Source of the DNA: a bacterium
Lineage (GTDB): Bacteria; JAAXHH01
Assembly (NCBI GenBank): GCA_965203885.1
Contig: OZ241920.1
Coordinates: forward strand, 3,858,323 to 3,922,322
DNA length: 64,000 nt
Reading direction: 5' to 3'
This document shows, one piece after another, positions 5,135 to 44,096 of the stretch. Made by a program: the position numbers and the translations under genes. Under the pieces are notes generated by a model, which was not told the origin of the DNA, made no database searches, and saw nothing but the letters and a program-made list of their open reading frames with translations. The stretch's first letter is position 1. The number at the start of each line of letters is the position of its first letter.

Positions 5135-5315
5135 ACGTAGGGGCGACCCTTGTGGTCGCCCGCCCGGAAACGGCGGCCAAGTCGTCCCGGGGGGAGCTTG
5201 GTACTGGTGGCGTGGCTTGGACCGAAGAGGGCACCCACAAGGGGTGCCCCTACGGGGATTCAAAATCGAGGCTCGATCCGTTATGAACACCTGTATTTGC
5301 GGGACGGCACACTAA
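5135..5315. repeat. Bipartite REP/MITE-like intergenic element, copy 1 (about 180 bp)
   Basis: Contains hairpin GTAGGGGCGACCCTTGTGGTCGCCC (5137..5161) and hairpin GGGCACCCACAAGGGGTGCCCCTAC (5229..5253). Its reverse complement aligns by hand to 43717..43897 with about a dozen mismatches. Confidence 0.8.
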
Positions 5316-9679: not shown

Positions 9680-9839
9680 CGGGGTCTTTCGGGATTCGGG
9701 TGGTCAGGCGGCCTCAAGAGACCGGCCTAGCCTTTACCCAGGTAAATGGGGGATACAACTGACAACCATTTTTTCAGAGCAGAAGACATGGCAAACTAGG
9801 CATTTATCAAATCAGTGGTGAGTTTTTGGCTTCTCTAAT

Positions 9840-10694
9840 CTAGTTTGCTTGCGGTCCTAGCCTCAAAATCTGAATGGCCCTGCGTTCTCCCTCAGTCGGT
9901 TTGATACGTCCATGATAGGGCTGTTCTGCGTGACACACTATGCAGAGAACAGCTAGGTTCTCCGATCGATTATCCCATGTAACACCATTCTTGTGATGTA
10001 CATGAAGCAAGTGCTGATGGTTAGGAGCTGAGAGTCCAACATGGCACTCGTCGCATCGCCAATTTCGTTTCTTTTTTACAGAGACTGATTTGCGAGACCA
10101 TTCAGAGACGTAGCCTCCTCGCGGCGACGTTTGATCCGAGTATTTGGGTAATGTCTGGAAAAACGTCTCGTATGTCTGGAAAAAATCGCGCAAGTTAAAT
10201 TGTACCCACAACTGATTCTGCTTCCGCGTATCCCAATTTGAGCTGTAGCCCTTCCAGTTGACAGCCCAAAGACAATTTTTGCAGACGCGCAGTCGGGCCT
10301 CGATTTCACTGCCTTCAATATCATTGACTGCGAACAATCCATCTTGTCGTGTCGTCACGACGTACCTTTCGAACCGACGACTCCTACGCATCTGCCGAAT
10401 AGTCGCACATTCATAGATATGAAATCGTCGTGCATCTTCAGGAAAGTTCTGGAGTATGTACGTGCTCTGTCTTGTTTCCTTAATGTATAGGACGATCTGC
10501 TCCCCTTTGAATTTAAGCAGTCTCCCAGGTCCGGGCCTTACCTCGGTAATCTGAGCGTCTATCCCAGTTGATAGTTTTCTCCTAAGTTCTCTTACGGGCG
10601 CTGGCACGTACGGTGCGAGACTCCAATTAGATGGCCTTGCACCCATCTGATGCACAAGGTTTTCGAGTGGCAAGAAGTTTACACCTGTCTTCAC
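9840..10694 (-). CDS. zorE: HNH endonuclease-domain protein (ZorE-like)
   Basis: 284 aa. The C-terminus reads CDECHVGLSAPNHQHLLHVHHKNGVTWDNRSENLAVLCIVCHAEQ, which is an HNH motif with Cys pairs. Its GTG start overlaps the upstream stop (GTGA at 10691-10694). Confidence 0.7.
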   Translation of the reverse strand: MKTGVNFLPLENLVHQMGARPSNWSLAPYVPAPVRELRRKLSTGIDAQITEVRPGPGRLLKFKGEQIVLYIKETRQSTYILQNFPEDARRFHIYECATIRQMRRSRRFERYVVTTRQDGLFAVNDIEGSEIEARLRVCKNCLWAVNWKGYSSNWDTRKQNQLWVQFNLRDFFQTYETFFQTLPKYSDQTSPRGGYVSEWSRKSVSVKKKRNWRCDECHVGLSAPNHQHLLHVHHKNGVTWDNRSENLAVLCIVCHAEQPYHGRIKPTEGERRAIQILRLGPQAN

Positions 10695-11395
10695 TGCACC
10701 GTTTCCAATATCTTGACAATCTGCTCCTTAGTGTTAGTAAGCACTCGAAATTCAACGCGCCGTGATGCCACTGTGTCCTCTCGTGAACCTCGAAAAACCA
10801 AACGACTGGAAGAAAGACCATTCGCTGTGATGAGTTTGCGTGCCCATTTTCTTGATGGTCGAACCGATCGCAACCCCAAACAGTATTCTAGTACCGCGCG
10901 GGTTCTAGCTTGGGAGAGTTCCATGTTGTGAAAGTACGCCTCGTCCTCAGTTTGCGCACCATCCCACTCTGATGACGTATGGCCCTCGAGGCGGACCTCT
11001 ACAATTGCATTTCTATACCGTTCCAATACAAGAAGGTAGCGTGGGAAGAATTCTTCTAGGATCCGCTTGAACTTCGGCCTGAGTTCCGCCGCCGCCGAGG
11101 CAAACAGAACATCTGGCGCCTTGAAACGTATCGAGAGAGTCTCCCGATCCAACTCCGCGGCCCATCGCGGCAGATCGTTCTCGAACTCTTCGTTGAGTGA
11201 TTTGTGGATCTCCACCTCAGAATCTTGCCATGTGACAACGATCTCTCGGATTTTACTCTGGACCTCGACTATGGGCCGGATATAGGTAATCGCAATAAAG
11301 AGAAAAATGATCATGAGACCAGCCATCATGTCCGCGACAGATACCCATTGCTCATCGTCGGACCTGCTGCCTCGCCCGAACAGCTTTTGCGTCAT
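10691..11395 (-). CDS. zorB: MotB/OmpA-like stator subunit (ZorB-like)
   Basis: 234 aa. It has a single N-terminal TM helix with the conserved Asp (VSVADMMAGLMIIFLFI). The C-terminal OmpA-like region reads LEGHTS...NMELSQARTRAV...SRRVEFRV. There is an ATGA overlap with the upstream gene at 11392-11395. Confidence 0.75.
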   Translation of the reverse strand: MTQKLFGRGSRSDDEQWVSVADMMAGLMIIFLFIAITYIRPIVEVQSKIREIVVTWQDSEVEIHKSLNEEFENDLPRWAAELDRETLSIRFKAPDVLFASAAAELRPKFKRILEEFFPRYLLVLERYRNAIVEVRLEGHTSSEWDGAQTEDEAYFHNMELSQARTRAVLEYCLGLRSVRPSRKWARKLITANGLSSSRLVFRGSREDTVASRRVEFRVLTNTKEQIVKILETVQ

Positions 11396-12810
11396 CGATT
11401 GACGTCCCTTGCGATTGCGATTATGCGTCTAAGCTCTTCGACTAACGGCCCATAGTCACGCACAAACTTTTCTGACAAGGCGGCCAGGTGCTGTCCCATA
11501 GCTTGTATGTTCTGACGAAGTGCTTCCTGCGTTCTCCTTTCAAAACTATCAAATGTACTTGTGATCTTTTTCTCGGTCTTCTGGAACGAGGCATTAAGGG
11601 CATTTGTAAATCGTTTCTGCGATTCATTGGAATTGTCCAAGAGCGCGATGTACCCGTGTTGGAGTTCTTGATGGGCCTCTTGTTGGCGGCCCAGCACCTG
11701 AGCCGACTGTTCGACTACGTTTTGGACCGATTGCTGAAACCTGCTTGTCAGCGTCTCAAGATTCTTTTCGATCATAGGAAACGCTTCAAGGGCTTGAGTC
11801 TTCAGCGAAGAGATTGCATCTAGGTGGCCGTTGAGATCCTTCGTCGCGCCTGACAGTCGCACTTGGATCTGCTCCATATTGTCGAGCGTTTCTGGAATGC
11901 TCCCTGCGTAGCCGACAATTTCGCGCAGGGATTTTTCGGATTCTTTGATCCCCTGTAGCGCCGTGTCAAAATTCCGTTCCAGCTGTTCGACGTGCTCCCG
12001 ATATCTCTCCTGCCATCTGAGCAGTGCACCAACAGCCTCGTTGAGCTGCTTGAAATTGTCGCCGAATTGCTCGTTCAACTGGGTGTTGAAGTCACGAATT
12101 ACCTCTTCAAGAGCCTCAATGAGTGCTTTCGAATTGCTCTCGGCCATTGTTTTTGCGAACTCACGAAATTCCTTGATCAGATCCTTCTGGCCATCCATGA
12201 AGTCCATGCGGAGCCTCTGTACCTGAGTAAGCAGACTGCTCTCGCTATCAGCAGAGATCGCCTTTCTCAGATTTTCCAAGGCCGTGCGCTGCTGTTCGGC
12301 TCCGTTGTCGATGGCCTCCTTGATCAACTCTAGAGTCCTGTGGATGGCAATGGCGGGATTTTCCTCCTCGACCGTGCCATCATGCCTTCTTGCATGTAGA
12401 AATCGAAGGCGAATCGCCATCAAGATGCCGAGAATACTGGTCAAAAATGCAAATTTCAGACCCTCCAACAATCGGGGCACACTCTCATCGATTTTCTCTA
12501 CATTGAAACCAATGAGGCCCCAGAAGATTCCGACGAAGGTACCGAGCACACCGATCGTGGTCAGCAAAGCGGGTCCACGAGCGTAAAGTGGACTATCCGG
12601 TGGCTGGCCCTTGAAATGGTAAAAGGCTATGAAAATCGCGGCAGTGGATATACCCAGAATCCCGACAGTGGATATATCAATCTCAAAGACAAAGATCCCC
12701 AGAATACCGACAGTGACAAGAACCAGAATTACGATAGCCGGCACAGTCTGGTCCTGAGATTTCGGCTGTGAATGACTACCCTTCACCTCTGCCATATTTC
12801 TGCCTTGCAC
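11392..12810 (-). CDS. zorA: MotA/ExbB-like proton-channel protein with a long coiled-coil tail (ZorA-like)
   Basis: 472 aa. N-terminal TM helices carry LLTTIGVLGTFVGIFWGL...LKFAFLTSILGILMAI, the MotA_ExbB signature. About 300 aa of heptad-like, Glu/Gln/Leu-rich helix follow. The real start may be the ATG at 12795 (MAEVKG). Confidence 0.75.
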   Translation of the reverse strand: MQGRNMAEVKGSHSQPKSQDQTVPAIVILVLVTVGILGIFVFEIDISTVGILGISTAAIFIAFYHFKGQPPDSPLYARGPALLTTIGVLGTFVGIFWGLIGFNVEKIDESVPRLLEGLKFAFLTSILGILMAIRLRFLHARRHDGTVEEENPAIAIHRTLELIKEAIDNGAEQQRTALENLRKAISADSESSLLTQVQRLRMDFMDGQKDLIKEFREFAKTMAESNSKALIEALEEVIRDFNTQLNEQFGDNFKQLNEAVGALLRWQERYREHVEQLERNFDTALQGIKESEKSLREIVGYAGSIPETLDNMEQIQVRLSGATKDLNGHLDAISSLKTQALEAFPMIEKNLETLTSRFQQSVQNVVEQSAQVLGRQQEAHQELQHGYIALLDNSNESQKRFTNALNASFQKTEKKITSTFDSFERRTQEALRQNIQAMGQHLAALSEKFVRDYGPLVEELRRIIAIARDVNR

Positions 12811-12865
12811 CTAACGAAAATCACTAGGGAACCGTCTAGACTGGGCCAAAATCTGGGTACTATAT

Positions 12866-13530
12866 CTATGTTGGTTCATAAAAACTTGGGTCGGAATAGT
12901 TGATATCGCGAAACATGTCGGCATTGCGGAAGAAGATGTGGAGAACCGCATTGCGTGACAGACCGAGCTCCCCTGCCGCAGTACGTATGGACCCGCCCTT
13001 CAGGATGGCGTTTACAATGGCCGCGTCTCGCCGACATCTGGCTTCCCTTCGCTTCTTCCCTGGCGGTCTCCGCTTGGCTCGTTGCCGATCGATCCACGCC
13101 GGTGTGAGCCAATTACCGCCTGTCCAGACCACACATTAGTTCTCGACCATTTTCGCTGTTGAGCAGACTTCGCCGGAAGGAAAACGGCCAAGTCCTTCCT
13201 GTTCGAATCTCGCATTGCACATTTCGGAGGCGACTATGACAGCAATGTGGTGGCTCTCCTTCCGCCCCATCCACCGCATGAGTTCCCAGAACAGATCGAC
13301 GTTCCGACCGACACACCAATACGAAATTTAATGGGGAATTGTCAACCTGAGGGAGTCGTCTTGCAAGTTCCTGTAGGAATTTCCCGCGCTTGTGAAGCCA
13401 CTGGGTAGTCGTGGATCTGTAGGCCAGGACATTGGGTTTCTAGTCATAGAGCCGCCGTAGCCGCGGTCGATCTTACTCTGCTCGTGGCAATACGAGTCGA
13501 CTCGCCGGAGGAGGCTAATCCCTTGCTGAT
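12866..13530 (-). pseudogene. Decayed serine recombinase (resolvase/invertase); only the C-terminal HTH is still in frame
   Basis: ORF 12866..13132 ends with RRPPGKKR...IVNAILKGGSIRTAAGELGLSRNAVLHIF, a resolvase-type HTH. Upstream, different frames read ...GRNVDLFWELMRWMGRKESHHIAVIV...FEQE... and ...STRIATSRV.... These resemble catalytic-domain segments broken by frameshifts and stops. This is a hand reading and is weak. Confidence 0.4.
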
Positions 13531-13614
13531 TGCGCGAGGCATTATTGTTGATACGTCTAGCTAGTTCCCACCCAGAAAGTCCGATTTTGGGGGAGTGGAG
13601 AGAGCGAGGGGAAC

Positions 13615-13789
13615 TTTAGCAATCGGCTGGAGCCCGAGGAGAATCTGCCGATAACCACCCTGAATGTCCGATTTCCTGGAGTTCGAGTCGGAGAAACAGT
13701 TCGACGCCGTCTTGGTACTGGGAATCACGGAGCATATGACCGACTACCCGTCGGCACTTGCGCATATTGACCGGTTGCTGATAACTGCG
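13615..13789 (+). pseudogene. Fragment of a paralog of the methyltransferase gene at 8498..9679
   Basis: 13637..13775 aligns by hand to 9178..9315, roughly three quarters identical. Example: ...CGATTTCCTGGAGT.CGA.CCGGAGAAACA.TTCGACGCCGTC..GGT.CTGGGAATCA.GGAGCA.ATG.CCGACTACCCG. It covers residues near EDLPITTLLCDFLEYDPEKQFDAVVVLGIMEHMPDYP. It has a 1-nt indel and lacks both gene ends. Confidence 0.7.
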
Positions 13790-25595: not shown

Positions 25596-27548
25596 GTGGC
25601 CATGAACCCGGAAATCACGCCCGGCCGGAAGCGTCCCGCCGCCGCTTCGGACGGCTCCGGAGCCGGATTTCGAGCCCTGTTCTTCATGGTCCTGACCGCT
25701 GCCGTTCTATTCCCGGGCTGTACTCAACCGGCTCCGGTCGAGACCCGGGAGGACGGCCGGCTCCCCATCTTCCACCGGACTGGAACTCCCATCTACTTCG
25801 CCGACCTGAGCCGGGCACAACCGGAATCGGCCCTGACCCGGCAGGAGAAACGCTTCGCCTGGAGGCTCATCGACTACGAGACCGCGCACTTCAAGGGAAC
25901 CCTGGTCTTTGCGGGGGAGGAGGCCCAAGCTCCCGACCTGACTCTGGGCCTGGACACGGCGGGCGTTCACGATGTGTACGTCGGCATGTTCAACACCGCC
26001 TGGAGGCCTTACCAGAACATGAACGTGCGGGCCAGGCTGAGCGGCGACCCTGCTTTTTCGACGCTGTTCCTGCCGGCGCCGAAGGGCTTGACCTCGGGGG
26101 TGCCCGAGGACGACACCGTCCGGGGCCCCCGGATTCAGGAAGTCTATTTCAAGACCGCCGACCTGAGCGGCCAGGACCTCATCCTCCGGCAACCGTGCCA
26201 GCGGGTCGTCCCTCCGGACCAGGAGTACGGGAACCCGTGCGAGAAGGCCTGGATCGCCTACGTCAAGCTGGTGCCGCTGAATCCGGAGGAGGTGGCCACC
26301 CTGGAGCAGGACCGCAAGCGGACCGACACCCGCCGGCTCTTCGGCTACAACGACTCCTGGGCCGTGGCCTGGGGGCGCGCGGAGCCGGCCTCGGCCGAGT
26401 TCGTCCGCTCCCACCTGGAGCCCTACCGCAACAGCGACTTCCGGCGGATCTACTGGGATGGGATCCACGGGGACGTCTGCAACTACTTCACCCGAATCGG
26501 AAGGATGTGGACGCGGGAACACTATCCCCTGGAGGATTTCGTCAGGACGGGCGACCGGCTGCTGGTCGAGTCCTGGACCGAGTACGTGGAAAAGGGGATC
26601 GACCCACTCCGGGTGGCGGCCGAGGCCGCCCGCGAGATGGGTCTCGAGATCCACGTCAACTACCGGCTGGGGTGGGGACCGTTCTATTGGCCGCCGCCCT
26701 GGGAGGCCTTCAACCGGGGAGGCTTCTGGGACCGGCATCCCGAGTGGCGGACCGTGCATCGCGACGGCACGCCAGGGACCGCCATGTCGTTGGCCTTTCC
26801 CGGTGTTCGGGACACCATGCTGAGCTTCGTCCGCGAGATGGCCGCGTATCCCGTCGACGGCATCGCCATCCTCTACAACCGCCAGCCCCCGTACGTCGAG
26901 TATGAAGCTCCCCTGGTGGAGGGGTTCCAGGGTGAGTCCGGCAAGGATCCCAGGGAGTTGGATGAGCAGGACCCCGAATGGCGCGACTGGCTGGCCTACC
27001 GCAGCCGGGCCGCCACCCGGTTCATGAAGGACCTGCGCCGGACGCTGGAAGAATCGGCCCGGGAGCAGGGCCGCGACGAGCCCTTCGAGATTACGGCCTG
27101 GGTCTTCGGCAGCCTGCAGGAGAACCTGGAATTCGGGTTGGATCCGGAGACCTGGGTGCGGGAGGGGCTGGTGGACACCCTGATCCCCTACTCCTCGGCC
27201 AAACACCTCTTCAGTTGGCAGCCGTCGTGGGAAGACCCGCGGGACGTGGCCGCGTGGGTGTCGCTGACCCGGGGGACGGGGACGAAACTCGCCCTGAACG
27301 TCATGCCCCGCAACCTGCCGGTGGCCGAATACAGGCGCAAGGCCCATGCCCTCTACGGCGCCGGAGTGGAGTACCTGGCCTTCTGGGACACGGTCATCCA
27401 CGGCAGCGCGTCGTCCCTGGCGTTGCGCCGCCTGGGGCACGCCGAAGAGATCGCCGCCTGGCTGAAAGCGGGACAGCCGGCGGAGGAACTGCCCTTCTCC
27501 CGCCTGCGAAAACTGGGAGACTGGGACCTGAGTTTCTTCCCCGAGTGA
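25596..27548 (+). CDS. Hypothetical lipoprotein
   Basis: 650 aa with a lipobox in VLFPGCTQ. The frame is GC3-rich. No domain was recognised with confidence. Confidence 0.6.
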   Translation: MAMNPEITPGRKRPAAASDGSGAGFRALFFMVLTAAVLFPGCTQPAPVETREDGRLPIFHRTGTPIYFADLSRAQPESALTRQEKRFAWRLIDYETAHFKGTLVFAGEEAQAPDLTLGLDTAGVHDVYVGMFNTAWRPYQNMNVRARLSGDPAFSTLFLPAPKGLTSGVPEDDTVRGPRIQEVYFKTADLSGQDLILRQPCQRVVPPDQEYGNPCEKAWIAYVKLVPLNPEEVATLEQDRKRTDTRRLFGYNDSWAVAWGRAEPASAEFVRSHLEPYRNSDFRRIYWDGIHGDVCNYFTRIGRMWTREHYPLEDFVRTGDRLLVESWTEYVEKGIDPLRVAAEAAREMGLEIHVNYRLGWGPFYWPPPWEAFNRGGFWDRHPEWRTVHRDGTPGTAMSLAFPGVRDTMLSFVREMAAYPVDGIAILYNRQPPYVEYEAPLVEGFQGESGKDPRELDEQDPEWRDWLAYRSRAATRFMKDLRRTLEESAREQGRDEPFEITAWVFGSLQENLEFGLDPETWVREGLVDTLIPYSSAKHLFSWQPSWEDPRDVAAWVSLTRGTGTKLALNVMPRNLPVAEYRRKAHALYGAGVEYLAFWDTVIHGSASSLALRRLGHAEEIAAWLKAGQPAEELPFSRLRKLGDWDLSFFPE

Positions 27549-27585
27549 CGCTGCACCGCTCTCCCGAACGGGGGAGACTGGACCC

Positions 27586-28356
27586 ATGGAAAATCGCATC
27601 GCCCTCGTGACCGGCGCCGGCCGCGGCATCGGTCGCGCCATCGCTCTCGGACTTGCCGCCGAAGGCGCGCGAGTCGCGGTCACCGCGCGCAGTATGGACG
27701 AGCTGGAGAGCCTGGCCCGCGAAGTGAAGGCCGCAGGAGGAGACGCGCTCGTGGTCCCCGGCGACCTGTCCGACCGATCAACGCCGGACCGCATCGTCCG
27801 GACCGTCACCGAGACCTGGGGTCCCGTCGAGATCCTGGTCAACAACGCCGGCGTGGGCAGCAGTATGAACCCCAAGCCCCTGGTCGATTTCGACGACGAC
27901 TTCTGGGACCTGACGCTCATGATCAACCTGACGGCGCCCTACCTTTTCACGCGGCTGGTCCTTCCCCCCATGATGGAGCGCGGTTGGGGGCGGATCATCA
28001 ACATCGCGTCCATTGCCGGGCGGATCGGGACCCTGCACGGCGCCGCCTACGGCGTCAGCAAGCAAGGCCTTCTGGGTCTGACCCGGACCACGGCGGTCGA
28101 GGCGGCCGCCCACGGCATCACCGCCAACGCCCTCTGCCCCGGCGTGACGCGCTCCCGCCTGAACGATCTGCGCCTGGAGTACGACTCGCGGCGGCTGGGG
28201 GTCAGCTTCGAACAACTGGAAAGGGAATCCACTCCGCTGGGGCGGCGTCTGGAACCGGAAGAGGTGGCGGTCCTGGCCGTTCAACTGGCTCGGGACGAAG
28301 CCCGGGGCATCAACGGACAGTCCATCAACGTCTGCGGCGGGCGGGTTTTCAGTTAA
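27586..28356 (+). CDS. SDR-family oxidoreductase (FabG-like)
   Basis: Has TGAGRGIGRAIA, NNAG and YGVSK motifs. Confidence 0.85.
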   Translation: MENRIALVTGAGRGIGRAIALGLAAEGARVAVTARSMDELESLAREVKAAGGDALVVPGDLSDRSTPDRIVRTVTETWGPVEILVNNAGVGSSMNPKPLVDFDDDFWDLTLMINLTAPYLFTRLVLPPMMERGWGRIINIASIAGRIGTLHGAAYGVSKQGLLGLTRTTAVEAAAHGITANALCPGVTRSRLNDLRLEYDSRRLGVSFEQLERESTPLGRRLEPEEVAVLAVQLARDEARGINGQSINVCGGRVFS

Positions 28357-28367
28357 GCCGCCCGGAG

Positions 28368-28530
28368 GGGCGATTTCCTAATCGCCCACCAGGAACGGCG
28401 ATTTCCAGTCGCCCAGTCTTCTTCCACGTTGCCCTGCGATTTGGCCGCGGGAAAGCGTACAAGGGGGACTGCCGTCCCCCCTAACCCCCTACGCGGTGGC
28501 TAGAAACCGCCGCTCCTGTCGGCGATTGGA
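28368..28530. repeat. Cluster of short REP-like hairpins
   Basis: GGGCGATT-TCCT-AATCGCCC (28368..28387), GGCGA-TTTCCAG-TCGCC (28397..28413) and GGGGGAC-TGCC-GTCCCCC (28463..28480). A GCGGTGG...CCGCCGC stem follows, then half of a GGCGATT hairpin at the intron junction. Confidence 0.7.
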
Positions 28531-29174
28531 GTCGCGGTAGGGACGCCGGTTGCCCAGCGCCCCCCGCGCAGATCCGTGCGTGCCCGTTAAGGCACACGGC
28601 TCCTACCTCAGGTAGTGACGGCAGGGTGCGACGCCTCCCGTATCCGACCCCCGCCTGTATCACGGTAGTCCGGCTCTGGGTCCGGGCCGTGCTTTGGTGG
28701 GCCGAAACTCCCCTTGGTTCCATCCCTTCGCTCCACGGACTCCGCAGAGAGTTGCCCCTCCTTGTTCGCCCGCTTCATCACTACTATGGATGAATCCGAT
28801 TGCTTCCTCTTTCTCCTCATGGGGTACGGCTTTCTCCTTTCCCATGAGGCCCCGGCTTTCACCGGGGTCAGAGCAAGCCCTCCCAGGTCCCGACACAAGA
28901 TGTACGTACGTGCATGGGTTCTTTGACACCGCGGAGCCCGGCCGTCCCTCACCTTGGCGGTCCAGCCGGTGTTGCCTTCGACCGCGATTACAGCCTCGGC
29001 ACTTCCGAACAAGGAGCTTTCGATGCTCAATAGCCTGCCCATACGCACCGCTACCGACGCTTCGCCGACACCCTCACGAGTGCCCACGCACGGCTCGCGG
29101 AGAAACGTGGATGGTTGGTCCTTTCGTTCCAGCGGACTTTCACCGCCTATCTTGTGCCAGTTAGCCTGGCGCAC
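28531..29174 (-). mobile_element. ORF-less group II intron (ribozyme core only, about 644 nt)
   Basis: On the minus strand the 5' end is GUGCGCC (29174..29168). Domain V-like GAGCCGUGUGCCUUAACGGGCACGCACGGAUC is at 28602..28571, with the AGC triad and a 2-nt bulge. A domain VI-like stem with a bulged A lies 7 nt before a ...GAC 3' end. Internal AAUCGC (rc of 28984..28989) is complementary to the last 6 nt of the 5' exon (GCGAUU), an EBS1/IBS1 pairing. There are no reverse-transcriptase motifs in any frame. One domain V position deviates: G.A where G.U is expected. Confidence 0.75.
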
Positions 29175-29231
29175 AATCGCCGCTCCCGCCGCTTCCCTTA
29201 TGTCGGCGGCCGGGACTATAGTGGTCGCGCT

Positions 29232-30500
29232 ATGCCATCCAACCAATCAGAGCTCAATCGACGAGGATTTTTCCGGAGATCCGGGCTGGCCGCCGCCGCT
29301 CTCTCGGCTCGAAGCTACGGGCGGGTCATGGGGGCCAATCACCGGCTTCGCATCGGGATCATCGGTTGCGGAAAGATCGCCGGGAGCCACCACCTGCCCA
29401 AGCTCCTGAAGATGTCCGGGAGCGCCAACGTCGAGGTCGTGGCCGTGTCGGACGTCTACCGGTCCCGGGCGAAAAAGTTTCAGAATCGGATCTCGAAGGC
29501 GGGCGGACGCGCCGTCGAGAAGGTCCACCACCAGGACCTGCTGGAGATGACGGACATCGACTATGTCGTCATCGCCACCCCGGAGCACTGGCATCACCGG
29601 CAGACTCTCGACGCGCTGGATGCCGGCAAGCACGTCTACTGCGAAAAGCCCATGACCCACACCATCCCCGAATCCCAGGAGGTGGTTCGAAAGGTCCGGG
29701 AGACGGGTCTCAAATTGCAGGTCGGCGTCCAGGGGATGAGCGACGACAGCTACTCCAGCGCCAATCGGGCGATCCGGGCCGGCAATCTGGGCACGGTGGT
29801 GGAAGCCCAGATGGAGTATGTCCGAAACCACCCCCTCCACAGGGGCCCCTGGCGCAGAGGCATCCGGTCCGACGCGCCCAAGCCTCGCGACCTGGACTGG
29901 GACCGCTGGCTGGGGCCGGCGCCCAAGCGTCCCTGGTCTCCCCACCGTTTCTTCGAGTGGCGCAACTACAGCGACTATTCGGGAGGGATCTCCACGGACC
30001 TGTTCATTCACCGCCTCACCCGCGTGCTGAAGGCCTGCGAACTGACCTATCCGAATTCGGTTGCCGGGTTGGGGGGCATCTACATCTGGGACGACGGGCG
30101 GGACATGCCCGACAACCTGGAGATGGTCGCCGAATACCCGGCTGTCCAGGGAATCACCAAAGGTATGACGCTTCACATGCTGGGCACCATGGCGAACAAG
30201 CATGGTGTCGAGCACTGTATCCGGGGGCACAAGGCCACACTGGTCTTCACCAGGAGAGGGTGGAAGATCCTGGATCAGGGATCCGGCAAGGTCGTGAAAA
30301 CCCACAGGAAGACGGGCGCCGAGGACATGGCGCTCCACCATCGCAACCTGCAGGCGGCGATTCGGGACGGCAAGGCTCTGGCGTGCCCCGCCGAGTTGGG
30401 ACTGCGCGGCGTGGTCGCGGTGGCCATGTGCAACGAGTCCTGGGCCCGAAGAAAGCTCATGGCATGGGATTCCCGGAAACAGGAGATGGTCGAAGCGTAG
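29232..30500 (+). CDS. Gfo/Idh/MocA-family oxidoreductase with a TAT signal
   Basis: The ATG at 29232 gives MPSNQSELNRRGFFRRSGLAAAALSA, then RIGIIGCGKIAGSHH and CEKPM. The TTG-extended track ORF (29115) would run through the intron 5' end. Confidence 0.85.
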   Translation: MPSNQSELNRRGFFRRSGLAAAALSARSYGRVMGANHRLRIGIIGCGKIAGSHHLPKLLKMSGSANVEVVAVSDVYRSRAKKFQNRISKAGGRAVEKVHHQDLLEMTDIDYVVIATPEHWHHRQTLDALDAGKHVYCEKPMTHTIPESQEVVRKVRETGLKLQVGVQGMSDDSYSSANRAIRAGNLGTVVEAQMEYVRNHPLHRGPWRRGIRSDAPKPRDLDWDRWLGPAPKRPWSPHRFFEWRNYSDYSGGISTDLFIHRLTRVLKACELTYPNSVAGLGGIYIWDDGRDMPDNLEMVAEYPAVQGITKGMTLHMLGTMANKHGVEHCIRGHKATLVFTRRGWKILDQGSGKVVKTHRKTGAEDMALHHRNLQAAIRDGKALACPAELGLRGVVAVAMCNESWARRKLMAWDSRKQEMVEA

Positions 30501-30518
30501 GGTGACGCCGCGGCGACC

Positions 30519-31619
30519 TCACAGCAGCCCGTAGAACAGTTCCTCGTACTGCTCCGTGATTCGCTCCCAGTCGAAACGGCGGCGAACCCGATCCTGGGCC
30601 GCCTGCCGCAGTTCCCGGTAATCCTCGGGCCTCCCGCAAACTCTGGTCATGAGCTGGGCGAGCCGCGCCTCCTGGTTGAAAGGGTAGAAGAGGCCGGCGT
30701 CGCCCACGGCCTCCCGGTTCTCCGGGATGTCGTTGACCAGCACCAGGCAACCGGCTCCCATGGCCTCCAACAGACCGGGATGGATTCCGCCGATCTCCCC
30801 CCCGTAGACGTAGCAGCGGCAATGGGAGAGCAGCTCCCGGTACCCCTGCCCGTAGATGGCTCCCGGCAGCACCACGTTGGTCCCGTCTGCCAGTCGCCGT
30901 AGATGCTCTATATAGGGGCGGTTGTAGGGCGCGTCGCCCACCACCACCAGCGGCAGTTCCACCCCCGATTCCCGGTAGGCGCGGATCACCCGATGGGCGT
31001 TGTTCTCCGGTTCCAGCCGGCTCACGAACAGCAGATACCCATTCTCCTCCAGACCCAGCTTCGCCAAGACCTCCCGGCTCTCCAGGCGCCCGACCGGCGC
31101 CCCGTAGGGAATGAACGGAGACTCACGGCCGTAACGGCCGAGATAGTACTCCTGAGTGGTCCTGGCGTCGGTGACGAAGCAATTCGGAAATCGGACAGCC
31201 AGGGATTCGCCCATTCGATGGAAAGTCCGGCCGGCCCAATTCCATTTCTTCCGCTTCCGCTCGATGCCGTCCACGTTGAGCACCACCTTCTGGCCGGCCA
31301 GCCGGGGAAGCCAACAGAGGAAGGCGTTGGCCGCGTTGCACACCAGGCAGACGTCGTAGCCACGAAAACAGGCGGAAAAGACGGAGAGGGCGGTGTGGGA
31401 GACCGTCTCCAGGTACTTGTGCCGGATCGCGGGCAGGACCCGAAGGCGGACTCCCTTGTAGGCCGTGAGCTTCGGATCCACGAAGTGGCTCCGCCCGTAG
31501 ACCGTGACCCGGTGCCCCCGGCGAACCAGACGGACCGCCAGCTCCTCGGCAAAGGTCTCGAACCCGCCGTAGTTGGCGGGAATCCCCCGGGTGCCCAGGA
31601 TGCCGACCTTGATCCCCAT
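30519..31619 (-). CDS. Glycosyltransferase (GT4-type with a DUF1972-like N-terminus)
   Basis: 366 aa: MGIKVGILGTRGIPANYGGFETFAEEL...GGEIGGIHPGLLEAMGAG. Confidence 0.8.
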   Translation of the reverse strand: MGIKVGILGTRGIPANYGGFETFAEELAVRLVRRGHRVTVYGRSHFVDPKLTAYKGVRLRVLPAIRHKYLETVSHTALSVFSACFRGYDVCLVCNAANAFLCWLPRLAGQKVVLNVDGIERKRKKWNWAGRTFHRMGESLAVRFPNCFVTDARTTQEYYLGRYGRESPFIPYGAPVGRLESREVLAKLGLEENGYLLFVSRLEPENNAHRVIRAYRESGVELPLVVVGDAPYNRPYIEHLRRLADGTNVVLPGAIYGQGYRELLSHCRCYVYGGEIGGIHPGLLEAMGAGCLVLVNDIPENREAVGDAGLFYPFNQEARLAQLMTRVCGRPEDYRELRQAAQDRVRRRFDWERITEQYEELFYGLL

Positions 31620-32220: not shown

Positions 32221-32382
32221 GCCCTCCCGGGTCGTGTCTTCGAATGAGGAAGTGGACTTACTACCCCCGCCGCGCGGTCCTTGACGTGTCACCCCACCGA
32301 GACGATACTGAGGCGCTCCTCCGGCGCTGTTTTCATAATGCCTGTTTCGACAGGATCAGACCGAATGGAGAAGTGATTCTTC

Positions 32383-33498
32383 GTGCTGAAGCGATTCTAC
32401 GCGGACAATTTCCGCTGTCTGAAAAACTTTGAAGTCGAGCTCGACCAAGCTTGTGTCCTCTTGGGGCACAACGGCACGGGCAAGACCTCGATCCTGGACG
32501 TTCTGAGGAGCATTCAGAACCTGGTGGTCCGAGGTTCGAAGGTCGAAGCGGCGTTTCCGGCACGAGACGTGTCACTTCAGGAGGACGCTCGCCGCGACCG
32601 CCGGAAACAGCGCTTCGAGGTAGAAACCAGCACCGACGGTGACTCCTATCGGTACGCACTGACCGTGGAGCACACTCCCGACCACCGCAAAATGCGGATC
32701 ATCGAGGAGACCCTGCAACACAGGGAGAAACTGATCTTCGAATTCAGGAACGGCGAGGCGCAACTCTATCACGACGATTACAAAAAGGGCCCTTCGTACC
32801 CGTTCGACTGGTCGCAGTCGGGAATCGGCGTCCTGAATGCCCGACCGGACAATCGGAAGCTCACTCGGTTCAAGCAGGAGGTGGCGAGCTACATCGTAGT
32901 CGGCTCCTGCCCTCCGCTGGTGGAGCCGGAAACCCGATCGGAAGACGTTTTCCTCGAGCCTCTGATGCAGAACTTCGTGGCTTGGTACCGGCACACCGCC
33001 CAAGAAAACATGGGAGAGATACCAAATTTCTTCGAGGTCCTGCGCCAAGCCCTTCCTGCCTTCGATTCCATCATCCTGACGGAATCCGGAGAGAATTCAC
33101 GCGCCCTCAAAGCCGTGTTTCGGAGTCCTTCCGGAAAGGCGATCCGTTATGGATTCGACCAGATCTCTGATGGCCAAAGAGCCCTGATCACGTTGTACAG
33201 CCTGATTCTCCTGCCCGGCGAGAGCCGAACCTCGTTGTTCATCGACGAACCCGACAACTTTCTCGCCCTGAGGGAGATTCAGCCCTGGCTTGCTCACGCC
33301 GTCCAGTGCTGCGGAAAGTCGCTGGAGCAAGTGGTCGTGGCCTCGCATCATCCGGTAACCATCGACTACATGGCCGGCGCCGGCGGCCGTTGGTTCTACC
33401 GGGAAGAAGACGGTCCCGTTCGGGTGAACCCGGAGCCGAAGGTCCCCGTAGACGGCCTTTCACTCTCGGAAACCATCGCCCGGGGCTGGGAACGGTGA
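32383..33498 (+). CDS. ABC-type (AAA_21-like) ATPase, AbiLi/RloA/OLD-N-terminal-like
   Basis: 371 aa. Walker A GHNGTGKTS, signature-like ISDGQRALITL, Walker B LFIDEPDNFL and H-loop ASHHP. Confidence 0.75.
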   Translation: MLKRFYADNFRCLKNFEVELDQACVLLGHNGTGKTSILDVLRSIQNLVVRGSKVEAAFPARDVSLQEDARRDRRKQRFEVETSTDGDSYRYALTVEHTPDHRKMRIIEETLQHREKLIFEFRNGEAQLYHDDYKKGPSYPFDWSQSGIGVLNARPDNRKLTRFKQEVASYIVVGSCPPLVEPETRSEDVFLEPLMQNFVAWYRHTAQENMGEIPNFFEVLRQALPAFDSIILTESGENSRALKAVFRSPSGKAIRYGFDQISDGQRALITLYSLILLPGESRTSLFIDEPDNFLALREIQPWLAHAVQCCGKSLEQVVVASHHPVTIDYMAGAGGRWFYREEDGPVRVNPEPKVPVDGLSLSETIARGWER

Positions 33499-34025
33499 GC
33501 GCGAGGATCGTGCTGCTGTGCGAGGACCAGCAGACGGACAGTTTCGTGCGCCGTTTCCTGGCCAGAAGGAATTTCAGAAATCACGACATCCACACTCTAC
33601 CGCTACCCTTGGGCAGGCTATCGGGCGAACAGTGGGTGCGAACCAGATTTCCCAAGGAATTGAAGGCTGTTCGGCGCCGGGAAAGAGCGTTTCTGATCGT
33701 GATCATCGATGCGGATGCGTTCACGACCGATGAGAGACGAGATCAATTGAATCGCAGTTGCCGGGAACAGGAAATTCTGGAACGGAGACCGGGAGATCCT
33801 GTGATCATCGCCGTTCCCCGACGGAACATCGAAACTTGGTTCGCCTATCTGGATGGAAACGCTGTGGATGAAACAACGCAGTATCCGTCCCTGAGCCGCC
33901 CGAGCGATTGTCGCCGCCACGCTCGTGAACTGTACCGGATGTGCCATGAGGACCAGCAACTCCGGAAGCCCATTCCCCCGTCATTGACCGAAGCCTGCGG
34001 AGAATATCGAAGGCTGACCCGCTGA
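33495..34025 (+). CDS. RloB/Toprim-like protein (AbiLii-like)
   Basis: The GTG at 33495 overlaps the upstream TGA (GTGA). The 176-aa protein starts VSARIVLLCEDQQTDSFVRRF. Compare the RloB pattern ilivCEGekTE. LIVIIDADA provides a DxD and VIIAVPRRNIETWFAYL matches the SNPxFExW-like pattern. It is the in-frame tail of track ORF 33306..34025. Confidence 0.6.
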   Translation: MSARIVLLCEDQQTDSFVRRFLARRNFRNHDIHTLPLPLGRLSGEQWVRTRFPKELKAVRRRERAFLIVIIDADAFTTDERRDQLNRSCREQEILERRPGDPVIIAVPRRNIETWFAYLDGNAVDETTQYPSLSRPSDCRRHARELYRMCHEDQQLRKPIPPSLTEACGEYRRLTR

Positions 34026-34340
34026 CCATGCCTCCGCGCCTCAAGCTGAAACGCAGATGGTTCGATCCGGATAGCCGTTGCCGGACCGGAACCTGCAGCA
34101 ACCGACGTGTCTTTCGCCCGAACTCGGAACGACTTCGGCTCCGCCGGTTCTCTTCCGGAATACGCCCACTTGGGCACGACATAGAGTTCCGTCAGGAAAA
34201 ACAGCAACAGGATCAAGAATGGCGGACGAGAATGTTCCGTGAAAGTCGCCATCCAGTTTCGTACCTTGCTTTGCCGGGTGGCAACCGGTGGGGGAATTTC
34301 TTTTTCGAGACCGGCAACTCCAGGTTGCGGCCAGTGGGAT

Positions 34341-35559: not shown

Positions 35560-35813
35560 GTAGGGGCACCCCTTGTGGGTGCCCTGCGGGGTCGCATGGT
35601 TCCCCGGCTGAGTCGCCGCTCCACGTCGCCATTCCCGGCGCCCGGAAGGACGCCGATCCCAGTCGGCGCCGAGGACGACGCCGCTCCAGACGCCGCTCCC
35701 GGTCGGCGACTAGAAAGTCGCCGCTCCACCCCCCCCGGTTCGGTAGTGCCCAGGCAATGGCCGGCGGACGGTGGCGCCGTTCGGGGGAGGGCGACCACAA
35801 GGGTCGCCCCTAC
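35560..35813. repeat. Bipartite REP-like element, copy 2 (long spacer with extra hairpins)
   Basis: GTAGGGGCACCCCTTGTGGGTGCCC (35560..35584) and GGGCGACCACAAGGGTCGCCCCTAC (35789..35813). The spacer holds GGCGACT-AGAA-AGTCGCC and two AGTCGCCGCTCCAC motifs. Confidence 0.75.
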
Positions 35814-35881
35814 GAGTCGTTCGACAGCGGCGACGCGGTGGGTGCCGCCAACGGACAATCCCCGCCCAGTTTCTCGCGGGA

Positions 35882-43716: not shown

Positions 43717-43897
43717 TAGTGTGCCGTCCCGCAAATACATGTATTCGTAGCGGATCGAGCCTCGATTTCGAATCCCCGTAGGGGCACCCCTTGTGGGTGC
43801 CCTCTTCGGTCCAAGTCACGCCATCAGTACCAAGCTCCCCCCGGGACGACTCGGCCGCCGTTGTCGGACGGGCGACCACAAGGGTCGCCCCTACGTC
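43717..43897. repeat. Bipartite REP/MITE-like element, copy 3 (inverted relative to copy 1)
   Basis: GTAGGGGCACCCCTTGTGGGTGCCC (43778..43802) and GGGCGACCACAAGGGTCGCCCCTAC (43870..43894). The whole 181 bp matches the reverse complement of 5135..5315. Confidence 0.8.
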
Positions 43898-44096
43898 TTT
43901 TTGAGGGACATCACTCTAGCAGGAAATCTCGCTGACAGATTCCCCATGGCCGGAATCCTCTTCTTTTCTCCTCCCCGCCCCGGCAGGTCAGAGCCGTTTG
44001 TTATTTTGCAGGCCGTAGGTTGGTGAATTGCCGGTTGGACCATCGGGGAAACCAGTCCGGTCCCGAACCGTGACTGACACTCTGGAGGAAAGAGCC

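Follow-up and report, generated by a model that had tools for sequence, protein, structure and literature searches.

Why would a group II intron with no gene of its own interrupt a short DNA hairpin exactly where the stem meets the loop, and what selects that position? The question arises from a 64,000-nucleotide stretch of bacterial DNA (contig OZ241920.1 of assembly GCA_965203885.1, positions 3,858,323 to 3,922,322), hereafter the window. On its minus strand, at 28531..29174, lies a 644-nt group II intron that lacks an open reading frame (ORF), the frame for the intron-encoded protein (IEP) having been deleted. We consider it very probable that this is a non-autonomous, IIB-like intron that retrohomed into a unit of a repetitive extragenic palindrome (REP)-type repeat by pairing of its exon-binding sites (EBS), and that it belongs to a lineage that uses REPs as targets.

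Structure and boundaries of the intron

The element was recognised with two Rfam models, RF02005 and RF00029, by an intron-free orthologous site (locus L111) and by its identity to relatives. By sequence inspection, the intron begins on the minus strand with GUGCG at 29174 and finishes with ...CCGCGAC at 28531. A GUGCG start and a GAC finish agree with the GUGYG/AY boundary rule, and the empty site backs both ends. RF02005 (group-II-D1D4-6) matches 29140-28917 over model positions 1-225 of 225 with 163.8 bits, where the gathering score is 49. RF00029 (domains V-VI) matches over positions 1-77 of 77 with 36.9 bits (E 2e-5), and its last base is 28531. Domains V and VI (28531..28604, minus strand) appear to hold the AGC triad in GAGCCGUGUGCC... 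and the bulged A in CCCUACCGCGAC. Domain V reads GAGCCGUG..., CCCUACCGCGAC is the terminal segment of the intron, and both are identical or near-identical in protein-coding relatives. Judged by its sequence, the window element is a group II intron with domains I to VI and without its own gene.

Alignment to full-length introns of 1912-1917 nt covers window intron positions 1-537 and 554-644, and about 1.28 kb of the IEP frame is deleted. Domain IV keeps a remnant of that frame of about 56 codons (MKRANKEGQLSAESVERR..., 28608..28778, minus strand), and no Pfam domain was found in this N-terminal remnant. ORF-less copies with the identical deletion, 98.6% (L108) and 98.3% (L107) identical to the window intron, occur in G044, the chromosome of an Acidobacteriota metagenome-assembled genome (MAG; OZ241897.1).

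The intron occupies a hairpin that was there before it

The minus-strand 5' exon ends ...GGAGCGGCGATT at 29175, that is GGAGC-G-GCGATT, and the 3' exon begins TCCAATCGCCG at 28530. Joining the two gives CGGCGATT-TCC-AATCGCCG, a perfect 8-bp stem. The start of the 3' exon (28520..28530, minus strand) thereby supplies the loop TCC (28530-28528), whose first base is the intron-binding site IBS3, and the 3' arm AATCGCCG (28527-28520). A preliminary description of the locus had placed the intron inside a REP-like hairpin that the exons rebuild. The sequences and coordinates that it quoted are correct, and the 8-bp stem and L111 bear the idea out.

Locus L111 of G044 is the intron-free orthologue of the window locus. 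Its two matches to the window, to 27000-28530 (93.6%) and to 29175-30674 (98.4%), adjoin without a gap. Its hairpin, ...GGCGATTGGA/AATCGCC..., is unbroken, and the difference at the junction is exactly 644 nt. Because L111 is contiguous with its hairpin intact, the hairpin predates the intron, which came in as a clean insertion of 644 nt. The preliminary description had allowed that covariance models might place the intron ends elsewhere; they give the same boundaries. Together, the covariance models, the covariation of EBS with IBS and the empty site prove these boundaries.

Two unoccupied hairpins stand close by on the plus strand, as had been described, and are therefore inverted with respect to the occupied minus-strand unit. 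Hairpin C (28364..28387) reads GGAGG-G-GCGATT followed by TCCT-AATCGCCC, its stem-loop being GGGCGATT-TCCT-AATCGCCC (28368-28387), and its IBS2, IBS1 and IBS3 equal those of an occupied G044 site (L107). Hairpin B (28392..28413) reads GGAAC-G-GCGATT followed by TCC-AGTCGCC, with the stem-loop GGCGATTTCCAGTCGCC at 28397-28413; it is mismatched once in IBS2 and once in the stem. This GCGATT hairpin pair opens a composite REP cluster (28357..28530) that continues as ...AAAGCGTACAAGGGGGAC-N-GTCCCCCC... and has 55 matches in G044. The same architecture lies directly upstream of the second G044 gene for a REP-associated tyrosine transposase (RAYT; L120 positions 850-990). The 52-nt unit made of hairpins C and B is present twice in tandem in G044 (L111 1760-1870) and once in the window (28361-28416), and the copy number of the REP cluster thus differs between the two lineages.

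Could the junction hairpin be an accident and its look-alikes unrelated? Short matches alone mean little, since GGCGATTTCC occurs 76 times in the genome of the window (G000), in every case except the two local hairpins in unrelated contexts without shared flanks. A stem of at least 8 bp at a random junction, however, has a chance of P ~0.0004 if perfect and ~0.003 with one mismatch allowed. The pattern returns at 13-17 of 20 sites in six genomes (see below), and the hairpin is intact at the empty orthologous site. We therefore regard coincidence as refuted and give it practically no weight.

EBS pairing chooses the target

All of the pairing elements lie on the minus strand. EBS1, AAUCGC (28984..28989), belongs to GUAAUCGC, the loop at the tip of a hairpin in domain I, and EBS2, GCUCC, is in a single-stranded stretch of domain I (29013..29017); both were assigned from the Rfam structure line and from covariation. 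EBS1 pairs with IBS1, GCGAUU (29175..29180), and EBS2 with IBS2, GGAGC (29182..29186), the REP-like unit's conserved 'head'. The two target segments are one nucleotide apart, the spacer being the G at 29181. EBS3 is the A at intron position 251 (28924). It was found in a blind scan of alignment columns against the first base of the 3' exon, in which nt 251 was the only domain I column complementary to that base, in 15 of 16 copies; the pairs seen are A-U, G-C and U-A.

EBS1/IBS1 and EBS2/IBS2 change together over more than 30 related copies. Six EBS1 variants occur among the copies, each complementary to its own 5' exon. Against the window pairings GCUCC/GGAGC (EBS2/IBS2) and AAUCGC/GCGAUU (EBS1/IBS1) stand the EBS1/IBS1 pairs AACCCC/GGGGUU (L012), AGUCCC/GGGACU (L100-105), GGGUGC/GCACCC (L007 and L158) and AGUCGC/GCGACU (copies in G049 and G051). 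At L110 both elements differ, with CCUAC/GUAGG for EBS2/IBS2 and GGUCGC/GCGACC for EBS1/IBS1. Variants also go together as sets, CCUAC/GUAGG with GGGUGC/GCACCC and CAUGC/GCAUG with GGAUGC/GCAUCU. The target is thus chosen by base pairing, EBS2 reading the REP head, EBS1 the inner part of the 5' arm and EBS3 the base that opens the loop. The earlier proposal that IBS1 is the 5' arm of the repeat holds for the inner 6 nt of the arm (29180-29175), and the comparison of EBS2 with the flanks that it called for gave a covarying pairing (29017-29013 with 29186-29182).

The same hairpin position is used in several repeat families

We compiled 20 clade sites with both exons, from six genomes and at least five hairpin families. 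A stem of at least 8 Watson-Crick pairs, its 5' arm ending 0-2 nt from the junction, was found at 13 of the 20, against a background of 0.3-0.4%. With a threshold of at least 6 pairs the count is 17 of 20 (background, 3%). Eleven outgroup sites (alphaproteobacterial copies, G042 and copies in an integrase gene) reach a maximum of 4 pairs. With a slash at the insertion point, the G044 sites are GGAGTGGGGGTT/TTCCTACCCCCACTCC; GGAGGGGGGACT/TTCCTGTCCCCCC (three times); ...ACT/TTTAGTCCCCCC; ...ACT/TTCCAGTCCCCCC; GGAGGGGCGATT/TCTAGTCGCCCC; GTAGGGGCGACC/CTTGTGGTCGCCC; and two without a good hairpin (L106 and L108). Related species contribute GGAGGGGCGACT/TCCAGTCGCCC (G049), GTAGGGGCACCC/CTTGTGGGTGCCC (G050) and five degenerate hairpins, and G047 has two full-length copies at GGAGGGGGGACT/TTTAGTCCCCC. 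The preliminary description had reasoned that its idea would suffer if no other intron copy were associated with this repeat. The window hairpin family is also occupied at L107 (G044) and L170 (G049), and so are sister REP families.

This constancy could mean that the intron particle recognises a folded DNA hairpin and that the fold dictates the position of insertion, a proposal compatible with choice of the target by EBS pairing. In five or more families, whose loops are TCC, TTTCCT, TTT, CTTGT and TTCTT, the junction stays at one structural point, 0-1 nt away from where the 5' arm ends, and the occupied strand is always the one with the T-rich version of the loop. Introns whose protein lacks an endonuclease domain (En-minus) also use single-stranded DNA at replication forks, where hairpins can fold (PMC4424553). 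However, IBS2 and IBS1 lie inside the stem, which makes EBS pairing and hairpin folding mutually exclusive. Well-paired copies also occupy sites that have no hairpin, at L106, L108 and L008-L011. Finally, the families share the head G[GT]AGNGG, and a homologous position explains the constancy without any reading of structure. For these three reasons the homologous position in related repeats is the simpler account, and we consider structure-specific targeting unlikely.

The hairpin-less loci L008-L011 come from G045 and from a MAG labelled Gemmatimonadaceae. There, full-length relatives interrupt an integrase-like gene, itself multi-copy, in its fourth codon (ATGGGCATCT/ACAAGGTGAAG...). G045 has no REP-homing copies, only 3 full-length copies in integrase genes. 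L008 has a REP-type 5' exon, GTAGGGGCACCC, together with an integrase-type 3' exon that is mismatched to its EBS3, a mixture suggesting that copies at different sites have recombined.

The window lies in a segment foreign to its contig

A census of GGCGATT-N3-4-AATCGCC hairpins over the 3.93-Mb contig of G000 found only one further copy, the neighbour 150 nt away. The occupied hairpin type has 3 copies in G000, all local, for 1 intron copy. The CGCTCCTGTC linker occurs there at chance level, and none of the TTCC-loop hairpin classes is enriched. No group II reverse transcriptase (RT)/maturase was found in the whole 3.93-Mb contig with GIIM or, GIIM scoring below its cut-off even on the true protein, in a repeat search with TIGR04416. 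No RAYT gene was found in G000 either. Because there is no intron protein there, the window copy is an orphan, unable to move in G000.

The terminal ~87 kb of the contig (3,844,535-3,930,987), with the whole window inside, is syntenic with G044:286,715-386,667 at 91-98% identity. Of 400 kb sampled elsewhere in G044, only about 10% aligns to G000, at 65-75% (conserved genes). The window locus is absent from all of 27 congeneric genomes, and in tetranucleotide deviation the last three 20-kb windows of the contig reach the 95th percentile or come close to it. The terminal segment is foreign to the rest of the contig, which either ends in a chimera or received a large transfer very recently. Either way, the intron has to be seen in the context of a G044-like genome, and since the segment comes from another organism, the statistics of the window's own genome mislead. 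The preliminary description had seen in the hairpin a dispersed repeat that offers many homing sites. That part fails in G000, with its three clustered hairpins, but stands in G044, where the window's type has 42 copies and its sister families 158-312.

Within the window, the intron lies antisense in the gap between two genes, one for a short-chain dehydrogenase/reductase and one for an oxidoreductase; 52 nt separate it from the inferred start of the oxidoreductase gene, which lies downstream. Three window intervals (9709-13786, 32359-34340 and 50632-55767) are precisely missing from the otherwise syntenic G044 and look like recent insertions. A different REP family, GTAGGGGC[AG][CA]CC-CTTGT-GG[GT][TC]GCCC, has 11 copies in G000 (5 inverted doublets and one single), all within the last 66 kb of the contig. 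These REP and REPIN (REP doublet forming a hairpin) sites lie at window positions 5137-5266, 35560-35826, 43778-43907 and 49464-49623 and at genome positions 3923356-3923448 and 3929239. Among 28 genomes of the genus the family occurs only in G018 and G000, and the congeneric G018 has a full-length intron copy behind GTAGGGGCACCC/C. Five GTAGGGGCACCC/CTTGT units in the segment are perfect yet unoccupied targets for the sister subfamily found in G018 and G050 (EBS2 CCUAC, EBS1 GGGUGC).

Repeats, transposases and intron copies in G044 and its relatives

G044 contains 42 copies of the window's hairpin type (GGAG head), 13 of them exact. It also has 158 copies of GGGGGGAC-TTTCCT-GTCCCCCC, 278 of GGAGTGGGGGT-TTTCCT-ACCCCCACTCC and 312 of the GTAG-headed REP (GTAGGGGC..CTTGT..); reversed patterns, used as controls for this census, give 0-2. 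The CTTGT-loop family shows the features expected of REPs, namely a GC-rich imperfect palindrome, a GT[AG]G head, many copies and inverted doublets. An ORF at L119 matches Y1_Tnp with 34 bits (over the cut-off) and NF047646 with 73 bits (cut-off 80), and six GGGGGGACTTTTAGTCCCCCC hairpins lie within 3 kb of it. A RAYT-like ORF at L120 has GGCGATTTCCAATCGCC, the window's reconstructed hairpin, just upstream. Because two IS200-like Y1 transposase genes with a REP-associated signature are embedded in these hairpins, the label 'REP-like' is justified.

Twelve intron copies were found in G044: one full-length with an intact IEP (TIGR04416, 357 bits), nine that lack the ORF but are otherwise complete (640-648 nt), one interrupted by an insertion sequence (IS) and one truncated. 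The protein of full-length relatives has an RT domain and a weak maturase match and no endonuclease domain; IEPs encoded at L003 and L012 score 358 bits with TIGR04416 and 123 bits with RVT_1. Full-length copies occur in G044 (1), G047 and G051 and none within G000, and the family is present in at least five further related genomes. In G044, G049, G050 and G051 the ORF-less copies (640-648 nt) can be aligned over their full length. All carry one deletion of about 1.28 kb, and their clades coincide with EBS1 type. The introns at L100 and L102 are 100% identical in different sites, with other loops and other 3' arms. One ORF-less clade is 99-100% identical at different sites, which points to recent movement.

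RAYT-like genes and hundreds of REPs in one genome, with REP doublets known to be mobile (Bertels and Rainey 2011, PMC3116915), raise another possibility. The intron could have entered a hairpin once, and the hairpin and intron could then have spread as one unit with the help of RAYT, with no retrohoming. This account would have to explain why intron copies occupy several hairpin families and have an EBS1 fitted to each, and why L100 and L102, identical as introns, lie in hairpins whose loops and 3' arms are not the same. Moreover, unoccupied units outnumber occupied ones by ~40-300:1, and the exact 644 nt are all that separates the window from the empty orthologous site. We consider such hitch-hiking very improbable.

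Two further G044 observations concern damaged introns (L103/L109). In one ORF-less copy, an insertion that carries a transposase splits domain V. A second copy breaks off about 390 nt from its start, and the two short ORFs behind it resemble, by eye, a toxin-antitoxin pair.

A proposed pathway of insertion and its limits

Retrohoming into the REP unit, the reading that we prefer, would run as follows. The lineage is IIB-like, with EBS1, EBS2 and EBS3, and has an RT/maturase protein without an endonuclease domain. An intron RNA would enter one REP unit, its three exon-binding sites reading the DNA by RNA-DNA base pairing: EBS2 recognises the repeat head, which is GGAGN here and GUAGG in the sister family, EBS1 covers the six innermost bases of the 5' arm, and EBS3 pairs to the base that opens the loop. 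Insertion at the edge between 5' arm and loop, and spliced exons that rebuild the hairpin, follow from these pairing positions. The ORF-less copies, all with the single ~1.28-kb deletion, have split into subfamilies, EBS1 following the stems of different REP families. The natural host appears to be a G044-like, sponge-associated Acidobacteriota with hundreds of repeats and at least one full-length copy per genome to give the protein. ORF-less copies would then probably be spliced and moved in trans by the protein of a full-length copy. Because that protein has no endonuclease domain, insertion should use single-stranded DNA and nascent strands at replication forks (PMC4424553).

The strand of the G044 copies is suggestive of such a link to forks and no proof of it. 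All copies but one fit a simple pattern, minus strand at 1.87-2.58 Mb and plus strand at 3.08-4.81 Mb.

Several points weigh against this account. The bias in strand matches the sign of the GC skew only coarsely, and the skew, sampled in 20 segments of 20 kb, is too noisy for placing the origin. Mobilisation in trans and fork-dependent insertion are drawn by analogy from other introns (PMC2882425; PMC4424553). Many of the 20 sites come from the same repeat families, so that the counts of hairpins are not statistically independent. The RF00029 score of 36.9 bits is just below the gathering score of 40. Finally, G000 has no protein for moving or splicing the intron, no second copy and no dispersed target, and present activity there is unsupported.

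A more far-reaching version would make this En-minus, IIB-like lineage a specialised parasite of RAYT-mobilised REP hairpins. The hairpin would set the place of insertion on a single-stranded lagging-strand template, the substrate of the REP transposase, and EBS1 would co-diversify with REP stems. We hold this version to be doubtful.

Relation to known group II introns

The closest analogue in population biology is the pair TeI3 (ORF-less) and TeI4 (ORF-containing) of T. elongatus, in which a single ORF deletion produced an ORF-less majority, in families with matching EBS and targets, that is presumably driven in trans (Mohr, Ghanem and Lambowitz 2010, PMC2882425). Here too there is one deletion, ORF-less copies outnumber coding ones, EBS1/2/3 define families and the protein is presumed to act in trans. 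The present family differs in its REP palindrome targets, in an EBS1 that tracks REP stems, in a protein without endonuclease and in its occurrence in sponge and coral Acidobacteriota MAGs, differences read from sequence.

By association with hairpins the closest introns are those of class C (IIC), which target intrinsic terminators and attC sites, have no EBS2 and an IBS1 of 3-4 nt, and insert after the stem-loop (Robart et al. 2007; Leon and Roy 2009, via PMC4424553). Both use non-coding DNA stem-loops, an En-minus protein and many potential sites per genome. The window intron, in contrast, has a covarying EBS2 and a 6-nt EBS1 paired to the stem, inserts between 5' arm and loop, and lacks the defining traits of IIC. 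The resemblance to terminator and attC introns that the preliminary description pointed out is thus superficial; the intron goes inside the hairpin and not after it, and hairpin-less sites are used as well. Because the intron inserts inside the hairpin, the stem must open for pairing.

RmInt1, an En-minus intron of class D, reportedly homes into the multi-copy ISRm2011-2 of Sinorhizobium meliloti by fork-linked insertion, and would be the closest case of an intron that lives on a repeat. Another repeated mobile element serves as a safe landing site in both, and both are En-minus. The target here is a 20-30-nt REP hairpin and not an IS gene, several subfamilies are retargeted, and ORF-less copies dominate.

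Group II intron copies in or next to REPs have been counted in Pseudomonas putida KT2440, where 2 of 9 copies (22%) are REP-associated (table in Tobes and Pareja 2006, PMC1525189). That table gives co-occurrence only, unlike the present case with EBS/IBS analysis, a fixed hairpin position and retargeted subfamilies. It is the only publication on group II introns with REP or RAYT that our literature search found, and other papers may describe the behaviour. Classes IIE and IIF are small, IIB-like and En-minus, 450-700 nt without the ORF, with EBS1 and EBS2, the latter probably serving homing more than splicing (Nagy et al. 2013, PMC3753933). The window intron resembles them in size, EBS2 and En-minus protein only, the traits that diagnose the class being an alpha' motif at a terminal loop of D1d3 and a domain V loop of 5 nt.

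According to a review of 2015, bacterial group II introns have three target specificities, namely homing sites, terminators and attC; hairpin-type targets belong to class C alone, and every other lineage uses ordinary homing sites (Zimmerly and Semper, PMC4424553). The present lineage, outside class C, lives systematically on REP palindromes, targets that are harmless, hundreds strong and shared between genomes, its guide loop being retuned to each stem variant. Were the hairpin itself read by a parasite of REPs, this would make a fourth natural specificity. The family is also a natural, sequence-resolved case of a protein-less retroelement able to spread, with at least nine complete copies per genome, without gene damage, and of one mobile element living on another. 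Its EBS1 variants and their matching targets form a ready-made panel for testing retargeting.

Occurrence in metagenomes and RNA, and unusual copies

The stretch was found in sponge and coral metagenome contigs from 11 studies, and metagenome DNA contigs also carry the uninterrupted hairpin. Cover was scored from contigs at 90% likeness or more, which any family member may supply; it reports presence only, and uncovered parts are uninformative. On this basis, contigs from two sponge metatranscriptome runs (X15 and X17) cover only the intron interval 28530-29179, with 0 on the flanks and word depths over the intron of up to 1,524 and 9,157. One 108-nt contig from an RNA run connects 29174 with 28532 through one base that differs. 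Such a head-to-tail junction is as expected for an excised intron circle or for a tandem copy, by its sequence.

A scan of metagenomes with a conserved 21-mer returned 3 loci only, one of which (L042) is a chance match in a gene, and a scan of viral contigs gave 0 matches. Two relatives lie next to other introns. At L013 the 3' end of a second intron is 57 nt upstream of the intron start, and at L043 (MKWU01051097.1) a related intron starts right after domain V of another group II intron, a twintron-like arrangement.

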